Of a stretch of 41,523 nt of DNA, positions 7,311 to 37,755 are shown piece after piece. Source of the stretch: Deferribacterales bacterium (GTDB lineage: Bacteria; Chrysiogenota; Deferribacteres; Deferribacterales; Geovibrionaceae); NCBI GenBank assembly GCA_050253335.1, contig JBFWJG010000016.1:1-41523 (forward strand), in the 5' to 3' direction. The first letter of the stretch is position 1. The number at the start of each line of letters is the position of its first letter. The notes beneath the pieces were generated by a model. The model was not told the DNA's origin. It saw nothing but the letters and a program-made list of their open reading frames with translations, and did not search any database. The position numbers and the translations under genes are program-made.

Positions 7311-7673
7311 ATGAAAATTTTTATTATCGATGACAACGGGCTGCACCTGAAGATGTGCAACTTTATTCTTACCAAGATGGAGCACACTGTATATATATTC
7401 GATTCAATAAAGAAATTGGATGATTTTACTCTTCAAAATGAAGTAATACCCGATATATTATTCATAGATTACAGGCTCGGACCGTCAGAAACCGGTCTTG
7501 ACGTTCTGGACAGGGTAAAAAATAAATACAAATGGAAATCGGCAAAGTGCATCGCCTTTACTGCGGATGTTTCAGAGGCGCAGCACCTCAGGGTAAGCGG
7601 GTTTGACAATGTGATACTCAAGCCTGTGACTGAAAATATGCTGAAGGAAATTGTGGGAAAATATTCCAGATGA
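7311..7673 (+). CDS. Single-domain receiver protein
   Basis: IIDD, FIDYRLG (phospho-Asp), FTA and ILKP conserved. Confidence 0.85.
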   Translation: MKIFIIDDNGLHLKMCNFILTKMEHTVYIFDSIKKLDDFTLQNEVIPDILFIDYRLGPSETGLDVLDRVKNKYKWKSAKCIAFTADVSEAQHLRVSGFDNVILKPVTENMLKEIVGKYSR

Positions 7674-20087: not shown

Positions 20088-23000
20088 ATGAACAGTTTTT
20101 CGGCTATTTCCTGCCTCACCAGAAATGACCTTGCCAAATACAAAGGAACCCAGTTTGACCAAAGACATAAAAAAGTTTTCGCCGAATACAAAGGCACGCC
20201 TTTTTATGAATTTGCCAAGGTTCTGATGAGCCACCTGCCGCAGAACTTTGTGGGCTTTCTTTCAGACGAGGACATGACCGGGCTGTACAAGCACCTTTTC
20301 TCAAAGCTTGAAGGAAGAAAAAAGAAAAAGATCGCCGTCAGTGCGGATCTGACAGAGGAACTGCCCTTCTTCATAGGAAATTTCTGCATCTTTTCCATCG
20401 TCACCGACGACAGACCCTTCATTTTTGACTCCCTCTGGGAGTACCTGCAAAACATCCGTGAACATAAAATATTCGTGATACACCCCATCTTCGGCATTGA
20501 AAGAGGCAGAAACGGAGAGATTCTCAAAATAAGCGAGTCCCGCCTCGGGGTGAGCAACGAATCCTTCGTGGTGATTTTTCTTGAAGGGCTGAACAGAAAC
20601 GAAGTCTCCGATATTAAAAAAGAAATCACCTCAATATATGAAAACGTGGCCGCCGCCGTGGACGATTTTCCCAAAATGAAAGAGGCAATGAGCGCTCTTT
20701 TCATGGAATACCGCGAGCGCAGCGGCGATGTGGCTAAGTTCATTCAGTGGCTGATGGATGAAAACTTCATCTGTCAGGGAACCCGAATCGTGGAAATTGA
20801 CGAATCCAAGGACTTTAAATCATTCTCGGATACAGGCGTGTTCACCCTTATGGGGCAGGACCCGAACTATGCGCTCCTTGCCCGCTCTGTGAAGGACGGC
20901 AGGCTCAACACTGTGGACGGCTATCCGGTTATTGTGGACAAGGCTGTCGGCATAAGCAAGGTCAAGCGCCGCACCAACTTTGACAGAGTAATGTTTGTGG
21001 ACAGGCAGGGGACAAAAATCCGCCTCTTTTATCTTGCGGGGCTTTTCTCCAGCAAGGCGCACAAGTGCCCGCCTTATGAAATAAGCATTCTGAGGGACAA
21101 GATCAAGGCCACCCTTGATTATTTTGACTTTGTCACCGGATCCCATGATTATAAATGGATACGGGATATTCTGGATGAATACCCCAAGATAGAGATTTTC
21201 AACCTTTCAAGCCGTGCCCTGACGGAGCTTCTTGAACTTATCCTCACCATGCAGGGAGCTAACCAGATCCGCATCTCCTACCATGACTTCCGCCCGCTGA
21301 AAAACCTTATCTTCTTTATGGCTATGCCCCTTTCCCGCTATTCATCCGAGCTTGTGATGAGCATTAAGAACTTTCTTGAGGAATACTTCGGCGGCAGAAT
21401 GATGGATATCTCCATCCGCGAGGATCAGCACAAACGCAGCTTCCTACACTTCCATATGATGCTTAATGATACTGACGTGCTTGACAATATAGATGAAAAA
21501 GAGCTCAAAAACAGCATAACCTCCATGCTCAAGGACTGGGATTCTGCATTGTATGAAGTTCTGCGGGACAGACTGGGGCAGGAGTGCGATGAAGTTTTTG
21601 CCGGCTTCGAGTCATACTTCAGCGAGGCTTACAAAAGCAAAAATACGCCAGAGGACGCTTTTCTCGATATAGTTCGCATACGCAGACAGGATGAAAACTC
21701 CTCCCTGCTTCATTTCAGCGGGGGAAAGGCAGTTCTGAGGATATATTCCAAAAGCCGCCTCCTTCTCACAGAGCTTATGCCTATCATAGACAACCTTGGC
21801 CTGAATGTTTACGAGCAGGACATTTTCGAGCCCACGGCAGACGGACACGGGCTTTATGTAAATGTGGTTTACCTTACAAATATAGACGATCCGGGAGGCT
21901 TCACAGAGACTTACAAGGTGATTCTGCCGGAACTGATAACAGCGGTAATCGCCGGACGGGCGGAGAACGACAGGCTCAATTCTCTCTGCGTAACAAGAAA
22001 GCTCACATGGCGCCAGACGGATATACTCCGCACCTTTGTTTATTTCGCCAAGCAGATAGAGAGCAGCTTCCTGATAAAATCGCTCATGTCCGCGCTTATT
22101 AACAACGCTGAGATAGCCGAGAAGCTGGTTAATTTCTTTGAGCTCAAGTTTGATCCTGATAATAAGAAAACCTCCACTGCGGAGATAGAACAGGATATCC
22201 TCAGCCTTATTGAAGGAGTTATCTCCGTGAGCGAGGATAAGGCGCTTCGTTACTTCATGCGGATTGTTCAGGGCACTGTGCGCACGAACTACTTCATGCA
22301 GCCCATGCGTGACTATATCTCGATTAAGGTGAAAAGCCGCGAGATGCCCATCATCGCGGAACCCAGACCTATGTTTGAGGTTTATGTCCACAGCGCAGAG
22401 ATGGAAGGGGTGCACCTCAGAGGAGGCAAGGTAGCCAGAGGCGGAATCCGCTTCAGCGACCGTAATGACGACTTCCGCACGGAGATTCTGGGGCTTGTGA
22501 AAACCCAGATGGTTAAAAACTCAGTGATTGTTCCGGTGGGCTCGAAGGGCGGATTCATAGTGAAAAAACGCTTTAAGGACAGAGAGCAGGACAGAGCCAA
22601 CACGATAAAACAGTACAGCACGCTGATTAAAGGTCTGCTTGACATAACCGACAACTACAAAGGAAACAAGATAGTTCACCCCAGCAGGGTGCGCATGTAT
22701 GACGAGAGCGATCCTTACCTCGTTGTTGCGGCGGACAAGGGCACGGCCACTTTCAGCGACATTGCAAACGGAATATCCGTAAGCTACGGTTTCTGGCTCG
22801 GCGATGCCTTCGCCTCCGGCGGCAGCGTGGGTTATGACCATAAAAAAGTGGGAATCACCGCCAAGGGCGCATGGGAGAATGTTAAGAGGCATTTCCGCGA
22901 ACTCGGCAAGGATATACAGAAAGAGGAGTTCACCGCGATAGGCATAGGCGACATGGCGGGTGACGTTTTCGGAAACGGAATGCTGCTTTCAACCAAGATA

Positions 23001-33640: not shown

Positions 33641-34030
33641 ATGGCAATAGGACAATTTGTTAAAAGCGCAGACTTCAAGAGCGAAAAACACGTTCCGGTT
33701 ATCGAACTCCCCGCTGGTGTAAAGGCCGGTGAGCCCTTCTTCGTCACGGTTTCCGTGGGAAAAGAGATCGCCCACCCCAACACGACAGAGCACTTCATCA
33801 ACTGGATAGCCCTCTACTTCAAACCCGAAGGTGAAGGCCCTGTTACCCAGCTTGCCAAATTCGAATTTGTAGCCCACGGCGAATCCGCAAAAGGCGCCAA
33901 TCAGGGACCCGCATACACAGACCCCTTCGGCACGGCTAAAGTTAAGCTGAACGCCCCCGGAACACTGGTTGCAGTAAGCTACTGTAACATCCACGGCCTG
34001 TGGGAATCCAGCGCGGAAGTTAAGTTCTAA
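33641..34030 (+). CDS. sor: Class II superoxide reductase (neelaredoxin)
   Basis: EKHVP, HPNTTEH, YCNIHGLW iron ligands; no N-terminal desulforedoxin CxxC; ATG after AGGAGG. Confidence 0.93.
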   Translation: MAIGQFVKSADFKSEKHVPVIELPAGVKAGEPFFVTVSVGKEIAHPNTTEHFINWIALYFKPEGEGPVTQLAKFEFVAHGESAKGANQGPAYTDPFGTAKVKLNAPGTLVAVSYCNIHGLWESSAEVKF

Positions 34031-34138
34031 GATATTTTCAGACTTTAAAGAGACAGGCTGAAGCCGAGCGAGAAAATTTTTACTCAATGGTGAGATAATT
34101 TTTTCTTGAAGCGGTTTGACACTATCAAAAGAATTTTG

Positions 34139-34161
34139 AAGGCGGGGGAAATCCCCGCCTT
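34139..34161. terminator. Hairpin terminator after the prophage methyltransferase
   Basis: AAGGCGGGG-GAAAT-CCCCGCCTT 9-bp stem 2 nt from the stop codon. Confidence 0.75.
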
Positions 34162-34163
34162 AT

Positions 34164-34925
34164 TTAGTAATTCATGACAAGCAATTCCACAACTTGCTTC
34201 CTTTCGCCCTTAAGTATTGAGTATGTCGTATTTACTTCTGCAATGTTAAACTGTTTAAACACCTGCCTTATGTACTCTGTGTCGTTTATACTGAGTATAA
34301 ATTTACCTTTAATCCCTGCAAGATTGTCAGCAAGGATTTTAAAGTCAGCAGCAGAGAATATGCTTTTTCCATAGACATCTTCACATCCGTGATAAGGCGG
34401 ATCTATATAAAAGATAGTGTCTACGCGGTCATAACGCTGAATACAATCCTGATAAGGCAAATTTTCAATATTCACCTTACACAGTCTCAAATGAGCATCA
34501 GAAATATCCTGTTCAATTCTCAATAAATTAAGCCGTGGTGCACGTGTCGTAGAGTAGCCATAAGTTGGCTGGAATGCTTTACCGCCATATGAGCTTTTTA
34601 CAAGGTAATAAAAGCGTGCAGCGCGCTGAATGTCAGTCAGCGTATGCGGAGGTACTTCCATTAATCTTTTAAACTCCTCGCGAGCCGGAAGAACATACTT
34701 GAATTGATTAACAAACTCTACCATATGATTCTTCACAACACGATAAAGGTTTACTAAATCTGAATTCAGGTCATTAAGTGTTTCCGCCTTGGACGGTTCC
34801 TTTTGGAAAAACACATTACCTGCCCCCGCAAAGGGCTCAACATAGCAGACATGTTGAGGGATTATAGGTATTATTTTCTTTGCAAGGCGGCTCTTCCCGC
34901 CAAGCCACGGTATCATACTTCTCAT
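34164..34925 (-). CDS. Prophage DNA adenine methyltransferase (D12/Dam class)
   Basis: WLGGKSRL, YVEPFAGAG (motif I), LNDLN, YIDPPY (motif IV), LSIND; GAGG SD. Confidence 0.93.
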   Translation of the reverse strand: MRSMIPWLGGKSRLAKKIIPIIPQHVCYVEPFAGAGNVFFQKEPSKAETLNDLNSDLVNLYRVVKNHMVEFVNQFKYVLPAREEFKRLMEVPPHTLTDIQRAARFYYLVKSSYGGKAFQPTYGYSTTRAPRLNLLRIEQDISDAHLRLCKVNIENLPYQDCIQRYDRVDTIFYIDPPYHGCEDVYGKSIFSAADFKILADNLAGIKGKFILSINDTEYIRQVFKQFNIAEVNTTYSILKGERKQVVELLVMNY

Positions 34926-34938
34926 AACAAACCTCTTA

Positions 34939-34967
34939 TTGATAAAAGTTATTTTGATCTGTACAAT
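34939..34967 (+). promoter_or_regulatory. Sigma70-type promoter antisense to the prophage late transcript
   Basis: TTGATA-N17-TACAAT pointing into the structured element at 34994-35075. Confidence 0.65.
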
Positions 34968-34973
34968 CCGTTT

Positions 34974-35079
34974 ACCCCAACTGCAGAAAGGGTGGCGGAT
35001 GGTAGCAGAACATTCTGTATGAGCCGCACTATGGCTTGTGTCGCCGGAGGTGAGAGTCCGGCACTGCCGTCCGTCTTTT
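34974..35079 (+). ncRNA. Candidate structured small RNA (four-way junction, tRNA-like)
   Basis: 12-bp closing stem 34994-35005/35064-35075 enclosing three hairpins; G-U wobbles favour the + strand; upstream promoter and trailing TTTT. Confidence 0.55.
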
Positions 35080-35476
35080 ATATTGGTTTCTCAGGCCACT
35101 CTATATCGAAGGGAAAGCCCTCCTGTGTTGTTATATCCCTCAGAGCTTGTCTATACGTCCGCACGTCCGTCTTGAAGGACTCATCAAGAGGATAGTCGGG
35201 CATCATTAGATAGTCTGTAGCTCTCAACAGTGCATCACGCTCAGAGCGAACTACCGCCGCTATCTGTGCGGCCTTTGCCTCGTCAGTGAGTAGCTCCGTT
35301 GGGTCAACAGCGATAATTTCACCATCGCGCTCTATAATCTGCTTTCCGGCACTCTGATCGGCAAGCAGAGCCTCCCATTGCTCAATAGTTAGCTCTATTG
35401 CGCCCGCAGGGATGATGGCGTGAATATCAGAGTGATAAAACCCACCATCCGCCCAGTATATTTTTTTATCGTTCAT
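35078..35476 (-). CDS. Tail fibre assembly chaperone
   Basis: GGFYHSDIH...IPAGAIELT...WEALL; RSERDALLRATDY...YRQALRDIT...FP..I.WPEKP; ATG at 35476 after GGAGG. Confidence 0.88.
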   Translation of the reverse strand: MNDKKIYWADGGFYHSDIHAIIPAGAIELTIEQWEALLADQSAGKQIIERDGEIIAVDPTELLTDEAKAAQIAAVVRSERDALLRATDYLMMPDYPLDESFKTDVRTYRQALRDITTQEGFPFDIEWPEKPI

Positions 35477-35490
35477 GCGTCTATCCTCCT

Positions 35491-37755
35491 TCAATAGCCT
35501 AGTGCAAACCAGCGGCACGGCTGCGCAACATCATTGCGCGGAGCAACACCAACAGCCTCGCTGTATATTATAAAACTGAATGCTGCCGCCGATAACGCAT
35601 GTATTTGACCGAAATAGTAAAAATTTGTTGACTCAGGAATTGCGCCTATATCAGCGAATACGCAGGCATTGGGAAACGCTATCGGGAACGTTATATTGCC
35701 TGACGCGGCGGCAGACGCACTGCCCCACTGCAATATCAGCCCGCCGGGCAGTTTTTGGTAGCCGTTTGCGCTCTTTGACGATGCCCAATCCGTGCCGGAC
35801 AGCCATCCTGACAGGAAAGCAGCCAACCCCGCGGGTGTGACAGCTCTCACAGTATCAGACCCAGCGGAGGCCTCTGATGTTGTCGCCAGCTCGACTTTAC
35901 CCTGTGTCGATGCCGACGCGGCGGGAACGTTATCAACAACCTCGGTTTTTAGCGCAAAATCCTTGATTGATGCCGGAGTGACCGCCCTCGCGGTGTCCGT
36001 GCGCGCCTCTGCCTCTGCCTCTGTCGCAAGTTCTACTTTGCCTTTAGTTGATGTAGTAGCATCAGGCACAGCCGCAAGGGCACGCGCAGTCGTAAAATAT
36101 AAATTCGACGTACCCTCTGGGAGGGCATCTGTTGTAGTCTCGCTTGAGATAATATCATAAATAACTGCATCGCCGCCGCCGGGGTCTGATACTGCGGTGG
36201 ATAATATGCCCGTTATTGACGCCCCGTATGCCGCAAATGATATTAATGTTGTGCCTGTTGATGCCGTACGGCGCACATATATTTTATCTCCTACAAAGCG
36301 TATTGCGGGGCGTGCTGGGCCTGAATATCCTTTAGAGTAGACTTTTATACCTGTCATCGGCTCAATGATAATATCCATATGCCCGTAAGCCTGAGCATTT
36401 GATTGATGCCCGTATGCTAAGCTAATATGCGCTTTTGATGATGCCGCTGTGTTTATAGTTGCTATCTCAATAAAGCCCCCTGAGAGCGCAACCGTGTCGG
36501 CGCCGCGAAAAACAGATCCGATGCCCTGCTCACCTTTGAGGAGGTAGTTTATAACAGATGCCGGAGTCAACACCCTTGAACCGTCAGACCTTGCATCTGC
36601 CTCCTCTTGAGTTGCGAGTTCGACAACTCCCGTGCTTGTCGTTGTCGCGGCGGGTATCGAAGGTATGTCTGAAATAGTTGCGACTCTGATCCATGTGCCC
36701 GACCACACACCGCTCAGCCGCGGACGATAAAAAATACCGCCGTCATCGGGGAATGCGACCTGAATGGATACAGTTTCAGAGCGTTTCAGCTGGTAGCCGC
36801 ATCCGCCGGAGCCGGATGGTTTATTCCCAGCGGTCGAATCATACGTAAAACGGCAACCAGCAGTCATTGAAACATTAAGATTACTAACATCAAGCGGTGC
36901 AGGACCGAGGCCGTACGCTCCGTTCGGAAGAAGTTTTGTAGGGTCTATATCCGTAACGCCGGAAATAACATCCCGATACGCACCTGCTTTAAGCTTATCT
37001 TTTCGCTCAAACGCATGAAAACTCAAAGCAGTTGAGCCGATGATTATCGGCGCGGGAGTATTGAGCTGAAAAAGATATCCGCCGTTTACTGTTCCTTCAA
37101 CGACGGAAACGAGAGAGCCGGGTACAATATCTTCAACAAAGTCGTAATCAAGAGCACGAGTCCACTCGCTCTCAAGTACTATATATATACCGTTCTCTGC
37201 ACCTGCTGTCTGGTTTTTAACAAGCACTCTATCACCAACATTAACGGCAACGCCATCAACAGCCTGAAGCCCTGAAAGCGTTAAGTTTTCAGTTGTCGCC
37301 ACACGTGCAGTGCGAGTCAGCCCAACCATGGTGGAGTTTTCTCCAACAATGATATTTACCGCTGTCACAGCAGATACAACGAAAATCATACCCACCGCGA
37401 CATCAGTGACGACTCCTGAACTTACAACCGGTTTTTCAGTAGCAGGATAATTTGAAACAGCAATGAGATCGCCTTCAGCATCAAAGACCCCAAGCTCACG
37501 TATAATAAAACCGCCTGTTTCAGGGGGAATGATTGCTTCGACTTCGATTGTCTTCGCATCATAGTCAACGCTGTATTTTGAGATTCCAAGCCGTGCGACT
37601 TCGTTAACGAGTTCCGTCATCACGGGTGCGGGTTCAACAGTATTCCCGCCGCCATCACCGACACCGACATTGACTATATCAAGCTTCACACCGCTCTGAA
37701 CTGCGGCCGCAACTTTGGATTCCCCAACTTCTGTAAGATATGATTTGTACTGCAT
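35491..37755 (-). CDS. Tail fibre protein
   Basis: N-terminal tail-collar region (LTEVG, VGDGGG, GGFIIRELGVFD, YP..EKP); GxVELAT repeats; C-terminal NGYQKLPGGLILQWG...FPIAFPNAC...WFALGY; ATG at 37755 after GGAGG. Confidence 0.92.
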   Translation of the reverse strand: MQYKSYLTEVGESKVAAAVQSGVKLDIVNVGVGDGGGNTVEPAPVMTELVNEVARLGISKYSVDYDAKTIEVEAIIPPETGGFIIRELGVFDAEGDLIAVSNYPATEKPVVSSGVVTDVAVGMIFVVSAVTAVNIIVGENSTMVGLTRTARVATTENLTLSGLQAVDGVAVNVGDRVLVKNQTAGAENGIYIVLESEWTRALDYDFVEDIVPGSLVSVVEGTVNGGYLFQLNTPAPIIIGSTALSFHAFERKDKLKAGAYRDVISGVTDIDPTKLLPNGAYGLGPAPLDVSNLNVSMTAGCRFTYDSTAGNKPSGSGGCGYQLKRSETVSIQVAFPDDGGIFYRPRLSGVWSGTWIRVATISDIPSIPAATTTSTGVVELATQEEADARSDGSRVLTPASVINYLLKGEQGIGSVFRGADTVALSGGFIEIATINTAASSKAHISLAYGHQSNAQAYGHMDIIIEPMTGIKVYSKGYSGPARPAIRFVGDKIYVRRTASTGTTLISFAAYGASITGILSTAVSDPGGGDAVIYDIISSETTTDALPEGTSNLYFTTARALAAVPDATTSTKGKVELATEAEAEARTDTARAVTPASIKDFALKTEVVDNVPAASASTQGKVELATTSEASAGSDTVRAVTPAGLAAFLSGWLSGTDWASSKSANGYQKLPGGLILQWGSASAAASGNITFPIAFPNACVFADIGAIPESTNFYYFGQIHALSAAAFSFIIYSEAVGVAPRNDVAQPCRWFALGY

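Follow-up and report, generated by a model that had tools for sequence, protein, structure and literature searches.

Genes and prophage setting

The right end of the window (the whole stretch of 41,523 nucleotides that was analyzed) carries prophage tail genes on the minus strand, in the order baseplate, fibre, fibre chaperone and methylase (Table 1). The final gene of this tail operon encodes an orphan methyltransferase, whose closest named homologs come from Geovibrio. Chaperone and methylase are separated by a gap of 152 bp, for which an initial annotation had proposed a promoter-driven, structured antisense RNA. As stated there, the gap holds no convincing reading frame: a 130-aa plus-strand ORF gave no Pfam or PHROG match, and a coding role for the gap was ruled out on this ground. 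The gap likewise contains no CxxC (Com-like) frame, in agreement with the reported absence of com at this locus, and the arrangement of Mu com-mom, with a Com zinc-finger gene before the modification gene, was not found in it. Comparison of the gap DNA with phages by blastn returned chance matches only, and no second copy of the element was found in the source genome.

On contig C1 of genome G000, a segment matching the one just beyond the methylase lies next to genes for a transposase, a transposition ATPase and a CI-type repressor. From this we take the prophage to be probably Mu-like; its methylase would then occupy the genome end that mom occupies in Mu. The shared 80 bp carry a repeated GAGATAATTTTT-like unit and form a prophage edge on both contigs. 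By eye, no 5-bp target duplication was seen in the host flanks of the two segments, so that two insertions are possible. A GC-rich hairpin directly after the methylase stop codon (34139-34161) is probably a terminator, though the terminator scan made no call there.

Table 1. Positions of genes, control signals and predicted RNA segments at the methylase end of the prophage
Feature	Position	Strand	Basis or remark
Probable Mu-like prophage end	34061..34140	.	80 bp, 92.5% identity to C1:80597-80676
Orphan D12-class (Dam-family) N6-adenine DNA methyltransferase, 253 aa	34164..34925	-	PF02086, phrog_56, TIGR00571 above cut-off
Methylase Shine-Dalgarno AAGAGG	34932..34937	-	Sequence
-35 box TTGATA, predicted antisense promoter	34939..34944	+	Promoter scan; conserved in relatives
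mRNA spacer segment, mirrors -10 region	34955..34970	-	Predicted refolding onto SD, start and early codons once inner arm is occupied
-10 box TACAAT	34962..34967	+	Promoter scan; extended -10 TG frequent in homologs
Predicted antisense RNA, ~105 nt, predicted start and end	34974..35079	+	Fold; R1 match 34993-35079, 56 bits (training member)
P0, 5' hairpin with purine-flanked self-complementary CTGCAG (34981-34986) in loop	34974..34993	+	Fold
Four-way junction	34994..35075	+	P1 34994-35005/35064-35075, P2 35006-35017, P3 35019-35039, P4 35043-35062
Inner arm of mRNA leader, mirrors P1-5' and P2	34996..35012	-	Predicted pairing with 34955-34970, RBS more open; MFE helices, family-wide energy test
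Tail fibre assembly chaperone	35078..35518	-	PF16778; stop codon overlaps T run of RNA

Predicted antisense promoter and RNA fold

The near-consensus promoter-like site reported on the plus strand is present (TTGATA-17 nt-TACAAT, score 10/12); its -35 box lies 1 nt from the methylase Shine-Dalgarno (SD) sequence and not, as had been written, 3 nt. It is the best of 5 sites in 33900-35600, where shuffles give 2.7 +/- 1.6 sites. A single promoter-like site alone is not significant, and the weight of this promoter hence rests on its conservation. A promoter site next to the methylase ribosome-binding site (RBS) recurs in relatives, and among 42 dereplicated four-way-type loci the -35 box matches TTGACA at four or more of six positions in 33, versus 1/42 shuffled spacers. 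The -10 score in these 42 loci is partly circular, because the -10 box was chosen by its extended -10 motif. The extended -10 TG occurs in 53 of 91 loci bearing the palindrome described below.

Downstream of the promoter, all four helices of the proposed junction were found at their positions, including a P1 of 12 bp with three G-U pairs. The fold has a minimum free energy of -46.4 kcal/mol (z -3.19), which 2/200 shuffles equalled; the opposite strand reaches -31.5 kcal/mol and is thus 15 kcal/mol weaker. A fifth hairpin, P0, was missing from the initial annotation. It presents a self-complementary loop at the 5' end, with a predicted dimer energy of -20.7 versus -2.8 per monomer. The TTTT tail is present at 35076-35079 as described, although two of its four T belong to the chaperone stop codon; since, in addition, the terminator scan called nothing at the RNA 3' end, this end is placed by prediction. 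The T-loop-like character assigned to P4 did not hold, as its UGAGA loop varies among homologs and does not form a conserved T-loop. Neither ARAGORN nor Rfam called a tRNA or tmRNA, which rules out a tRNA identity.

Conservation, covariation and strand

Homologous loci were collected, 80 genomic and 80 viral. An intact methylase start was present in 174 loci, of which 8 (identity below 44% or short flank) and 9 near-duplicates were dropped, leaving 157. The layout of the window, with a promoter abutting the SD, a leader hairpin and a multi-hairpin junction, is complete in six close homologs of related genomes, and its promoter part is found in a seventh. The element was recognized in 119 of the 157 dereplicated methylase loci; in the other 38 none was recognizable. 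It comes in two architectures. Type A, the four-way form of the window, comprises 21 loci (L049 was excluded) from Deferribacterales-like and deltaproteobacterial hosts. Type B has a three-way junction and comprises 98 largely proteobacterial loci, with two hairpins inside P1 in 91 of them; manual inspection discarded 6 of 105 candidates, and one more gave no fold. Alignments A2 and A5 hold 19/21 type A and 60/98 type B loci, respectively.

In type A, 78-80% of cells are paired and 20-21 of 30 pairs show double changes, a level reached by 0-1/500 shuffles. A plain MAFFT alignment of the 19 type A sequences gave 78% of cells paired and double changes in 20/30 pairs. The covariation check proposed initially was borne out by 49 non-training matches of model R1, from 48 loci (one matched twice) in an alignment fitted to R1: 94% of cells are paired, versus 42-54% in slid controls, and 20/30 pairs carry double changes. 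Locus L249 contains a second, weaker R1 match (1624-1698, 24.8 bits) directly after the main one. In type B, pairing amounts to 95% for P1 and 87% for P3. P2 is paired in 32-37% in the R2 alignment, where it is mis-registered, and in 48% after a shift; its covariation is not established, because R2 was built with P2 in this register.

The initial annotation had read the fold as strand-specific, and the family agrees: in 116/119 homologs the better fold is that of the antisense strand (21/21 type A, 95/98 type B). At least four T within 8 nt follow P1 in 19/21 type A and 62/98 type B loci. Both types have in common their position, the promoter, a P1 with T-rich tail and a hairpin with a pyrimidine-U loop. 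R2 finds three type A elements in place (L056, E 0.039; L162, E 0.11; L064, E 0.98), and it did not match the type A element of the window. Common descent of the two types is likely from these features, yet unproven, since cross-detection is weak.

The mRNA leader and a proposed counter-transcript attenuator

The methylase mRNA leader is complementary to its own ribosome-binding region, which the initial annotation had not described. Correspondingly, the RNA holds a copy of the RBS region of its own gene: an exact match of at least 7 nt occurs in 43% of own pairs in type A and 33% in type B; in foreign pairs the rates are 15% and 9%, in shuffles 5%. This copy clusters in P4 in type A and in P2 in type B. 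The predicted RNA start lies some 50 nt before the start codon, and the RNA does not overlap the SD. As it contains a copy of the RBS region, it cannot pair with the RBS itself, and it is the mRNA that thus has an anti-RBS arm. Strand assignment of the match by wobble counts was dropped, as the test made no call (36 vs 29).

RBS opening costs were obtained from partition functions, with state boundaries chosen by the analyst; the loci are related, and p-values therefore overstate. For type A, 58 pattern loci were reduced to 52 usable ones and to 42 after dereplication. In these 42, opening costs 6.65 kcal/mol when only the inner arm is present, 8.88 in the RNA-bound state, for which the leader was removed, and 11.58 when the leader is complete and at equilibrium; the corresponding type B values are 6.08, 7.64 and 8.44. 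When the inner arm is shuffled, the cost is 9.37 in type A (own arm lower in 39/42) and 7.57 in type B (own arm lower in 80/98). RNA binding brings SD-spacer pairing up from 0.09 to 0.53, with an increase in 37/42 type A loci. In the window, which lacks the outer lock, opening costs 7.5 kcal/mol in the free and 10.2 in the leader-bound state, and 3/40 shuffled leaders are as open. For the first 21 type A loci, a swapped leader gave no different cost from the own one (p 0.68). At equilibrium, the whole leader costs more than the RNA-bound state in 26/42 type A loci and less in 8 (median 11.6 vs 8.9); in type B it costs more in 48/98 and less in 18/98. In these models, the free leader is the more open state and the bound one the more closed when the inner arm alone or the window is considered; with the whole leader at equilibrium, most loci show the reverse.

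From these folding models, we think there is a fair case, somewhat better than even, that the gap is a conserved two-strand control cassette, in which a counter-transcript attenuator would keep the methylase untranslated. A ~105-nt counter-transcribed RNA would be made from a host sigma-70-type promoter. In the mRNA, the inner arm would capture the spacer beside the SD and leave the RBS more open. The antisense RNA may bind from its 5' hairpin and occupy the inner arm, upon which the spacer would fold onto the SD region. As the inner arm opens the ribosome site, RNA binding is predicted to close it. Because the outer arm predicts the reverse at equilibrium, however, the direction of repression is likely only. 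The whole leader at equilibrium would by itself predict activation, so that repression needs a kinetic argument in which the mirrored P4 hairpin forms first. Newly made late mRNA might then be briefly open through its inner arm and later lock itself; since the distal arm can lock the SD at equilibrium, translation would be limited to newly made mRNA. In the lysogen, the RNA would be constitutive and absorb leaky late transcription. Strong late transcription together with convergent interference would overwhelm it, and phage DNA would be methylated late only, probably protecting the progeny from restriction. Silencing in the lysogen, as proposed initially, thus is the best-supported direction in the folding models, the window included, with the exception of the whole leader at equilibrium, which gives the reverse.

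In the opposite arrangement, the RNA would act as a key. The leader would hide its own RBS through the outer arm, antisense pairing or RNase III cleavage of the duplex would free it, and methylase would be made only with both RNAs present. The excess of RBS copies in own over foreign pairs speaks for such a lock, as does the full leader: its pairing with the SD reaches 0.68, and opening becomes more costly with it in the 26 type A loci mentioned above; in type B, the own leader exceeds the swapped one in 67/98. Still, leader removal in the window raises the cost instead of lowering it, and the freed spacer refolds onto the SD in 37/42 loci. A constitutive promoter would moreover supply the key in the lysogen too and provide no obvious timing. 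We hence regard the key function as unlikely, while a part of the energies does favor it.

Linkage to the methylase and to com

The element keeps close company with the methylase. RNA-only patterns matched viral contigs, 58 for type A and 37 for type B, some of them seed-locus contigs, and a methylase follows the match in 54/58 and 37/37, respectively (91/95). Among the remaining four, the contig ends in two cases, an ORF is missing in a third, and the last is followed by other genes. The whole phages VP882, B3, TJ1, HAP-1, Mae-JY22 and Aval, three of which are R2 training members, each contain one strong R2 match upstream of the methylase or its com; in VP882 the element core is 20855-20942 on the minus strand. 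A search with R1 over 101 genomes matched 7, six with training loci and one new. Over 120 genomes of the class of this new genome it matched 5: in four, the match precedes a methylase in antisense orientation, in three of these with com in between, and in the fifth it precedes an unrelated gene.

A Com-like ORF lies before the methylase in 49/174 loci, in most of them with the element upstream of com, and phage B3 shows the same order. For the four-way type, com intervenes in the 3/5 R1 matches just mentioned. As com-like ORFs accompany the element in many loci, the RNA does not replace Com, and the suggestion that it stands in for the missing com was given up.

The cassette also occurs in N15-like and integrase-encoding phages. 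In related genomes, prophages that end in the methylase lie directly beside a CRISPR array in L008 (823-1391; 10 repeats of type DR4) and beside a tRNA gene in L007 (1289-1371) and L010 (2388-2472); the cassette thus rides on integrating phages too. Two type A elements stand before other genes: L208:1501-1581 before a 389-aa ORF that is not a methylase, and L263:1498-1585, near a terminase, before ORFs of 83 and 272 aa without Pfam match. The type A cassette may hence be reused. A frameshift seems to disrupt the methylase behind the element in L206, L211 and L013, and in L012 this gene is 5'-truncated.

Among loci without cassette, in six (L090, L133, L138, L146, L177, L199) the AT-rich sequence upstream contains a cluster of two to four GATC sites. 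This layout recalls the Dam/OxyR control of Mu mom, and by this analogy the cluster may control this methylase family in place of the cassette. In four others (L075, L081, L095, L136), the methylase directly follows an apparent coding sequence.

The linkage bears on a function mainly in trans, in which the RNA would control superinfection like C4 or P4 CI, pair with other mRNAs or be bound by a protein (methylase, Com, Hfq), its position at the methylase being secondary. The stable, compact and covarying fold, exposed P3 loops started by pyrimidine-U and a predicted self-dimerizing 5' end exceed what a plain antisense RNA needs, and VP882, which carries the element, also encodes VpdS. Against this stand the methylase linkage and the covariation of the RNA with its own RBS region. 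Also, the longest matches elsewhere, 10 nt in VP882 and 12 in Mae-JY22, are within shuffled ranges, and the phage part of the window gave 10 nt; this longest-match test would miss short split targets. In phage B3 (L213), a 16-nt match to the 3' side of the P3 of its element lies at 2227-2242 in ORF5, where 20 shuffles reached at most 14; neither of the two other whole phages compared has such a match. The C4 model did not match the element, and the search of three whole phages and the phage part of the window gave no consistent trans target; the C4/CI-like role considered in the initial annotation thus found no support, and we deem a mainly trans-acting RNA improbable.

The P0 palindrome

A palindrome is centered 12-16 bp after the -10 box in 91/157 loci. 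Among type B matches from a model lacking P0, a zero-spacer palindrome of at least 6 nt lies just 5' of P1 in 39/42, and the same criterion was reached in 4/42 control windows and in 38% of shuffles. Many of these 42 loci are also in the hand-picked set, where the palindrome count of 96/98 is circular and was not used. The palindromes comprise 21 different central hexamers, 12/96 palindromes contain no adenine, and the first non-Watson-Crick pair flanking the palindrome is a G-U of the antisense strand in 75 cases and an A-C in 7. The predicted gain on self-dimerization is -16.5 kcal/mol for the palindrome hairpin as compared with -4.4 for P3. In type A, the strict hexamer occurs in 7/21 loci, window included, and many deltaproteobacterial members have no palindrome. 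The variable hexamers, some without adenine, the flanks favoring antisense G-U and the modeled self-dimer gain point to RNA-RNA pairing rather than to a DNA site. A universal methylase target was rejected, given the 12/96 palindromes without adenine.

Self-pairing invites a more far-reaching idea, that phages use a mobile and uncatalogued antisense-RNA family to sense copy number or concentration in the control of genome methylation. With one copy in the lysogen, the methylase would be repressed by monomers; upon phage DNA amplification, the RNA would pair with itself through the very loop that attacks the mRNA and release the methylase in a switch-like manner. We consider this sensor distinctly unlikely as it stands.

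Antisense transcription might also matter as an act alone, by collision or occlusion, with the fold merely terminating and stabilizing the transcript. The promoter conserved in place and the T-rich stretch after P1 in both types would agree with this. It leaves the locus-specific RBS copy, the opener arm and the palindromic loop unexplained, however, and we give it little credence. Hardly credible is a palindrome that serves as DNA operator or methylase target controlling the promoter, with the rest a cis mRNA leader and no antisense RNA, since in spite of its typical operator position the palindrome varies in its hexamers, adenine content and G-U-biased flanks as described, and the fold prefers the antisense strand in nearly all homologs.

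Comparison with known RNA families and systems

The element is absent from Rfam: the window gave nothing at the gathering cut-off and the junction nothing at E up to 10. In the literature, including the main text of Weinberg 2017 (which has no D12 passage), we found no description of this RNA. As judged from sequence, it appears to be a real, widespread and uncatalogued element, the novelty of which could be reduced by the Weinberg 2017 supplement or by the position of VpdS. VpdS of VP882 is a trans-acting, Hfq-binding sRNA, of about 50 nt in one review.

By analogy, the element probably works like the counter-transcribed RNA (ctRNA) attenuators of plasmids, outside any catalogued family. The repABC ctRNA of Rhizobium etli p42d and its relatives is counter-transcribed, intergenic within its operon and located just upstream of the controlled gene; without it, a large mRNA stem-loop leaves SD and start free, and with it the leader refolds (PMC3155836, PMC10194956). 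Layout and logic of the proposed attenuator would match this system as summarized in PMC3155836. Shared is the opposite-strand promoter between leader and RBS, here by sequence and conservation only. The repABC ctRNA, however, has 55-59 nt, controls a replication initiator and is described as inducing an intrinsic terminator, whereas the element has ~105 nt, a closed three- or four-way junction and a phage methylase as its gene. The terminator scan found no terminator on the mRNA strand as in repABC, and no match to Rfam ctRNA families of this kind was seen. Two type B elements compared with plasmids matched nothing useful.

The nearest catalogued score came from ctRNA_pGA1 (RF00236) of Corynebacterium rolling-circle plasmids, which is antisense to the rep leader and controls the amount of Rep (PMC9592669). 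On three type B elements, this model reached 29.7-36.4 bits over P2, P3 and the U tail, with the cut-off at 45 bits; on the window it gave no match at E up to 10. A further RF00236 search over five targets was weak, with 150 candidates scored in large genomes and the L113 match missed. The ctRNA_pGA1 consensus consists of two open hairpins without an enclosing P1 or a P0, both of which the element has, and it precedes a plasmid rep gene, whereas the element precedes a D12 methylase or com. Conversely, R1 and R2 did not find the true member pTET3 ctRNA 7562-7641 with filters off and E up to 5, the P2 register of R2 being imperfect. Each of three IS6100 transposase copies of pTET3 (L316; 2514-2598, 21211-21295, 25165-25249) gave a weak 15-bit R2 match, probably by chance. 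SymR (RF01809) scored 28.4 bits on one type B element, with a cut-off of 61 bits. It is likewise a cis-antisense RNA, but its overlap is with the start region of symE, while the element begins well upstream of the methylase start codon.

Among phage RNAs, C4 of P1/P7, P4 CI and IsrK are cloverleaf-like, about 80 nt long and have exposed loops. C4 and CI RNAs are read in the direction of their target, pair with separate a and b sites and are processed by RNase P. Unlike these and IsrK, which share their targets' direction, the element is counter-transcribed, and the C4, c4-a1b1 and isrK models gave no match on it. L094 does contain a true C4 antisense RNA (2304-2490), with further scores for c4-a1b1 and an isrK-like RNA, just downstream of the methylase and apart from the element. 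The D12-methyl motif (RF02950), a 64-position model named after the same Pfam methylase class, was found neither in the genome at E up to 10 (150/544 candidates scored) nor in the region nor in 20 + 18 homolog loci.

Control of Mu mom uses protein activators and Dam-sensitive repression. With Mu com-mom and the com-methylase operons (B3 ORF47-48, Hin1523, Hia5), the cassette shares a modification gene at a Mu-like genome end. In Mu, the DNA-modification gene is under tight late control, with the Com protein acting on the mRNA (PMC3299994). Mu com-mom uses Com, whereas the cassette occurs with or without com.

Significance

Many temperate phages carry orphan Dam-family methylases, which are often silent in lysogens. 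M.EcoMIV, a prophage D12 methylase, was poorly transcribed and gave no motif in its lysogen (PMC4659465). By analogy, the silent state of such methylases, as given in PMC3299994 and PMC4659465, fits an attenuator of the kind proposed here. In the literature, we found no account of the timing of orphan phage methylases outside the Mu com-mom operon, and the cassette offers a specific, testable answer. Its range, 119/157 sampled close homologs, extends over Deferribacterales-like hosts, deltaproteobacteria and Proteobacteria and includes the culturable phages B3, VP882, HAP-1 and TJ1. The cassette would add to Rfam an RNA family with two architectures that is missing there, and the window contributes its four-way subtype. 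A covarying self-complementary loop would be a rare sign of RNA dimerization in a bacterial regulatory RNA. For the biology of these prophages, the cassette would bring plasmid-style counter-transcript control to a phage anti-restriction gene.
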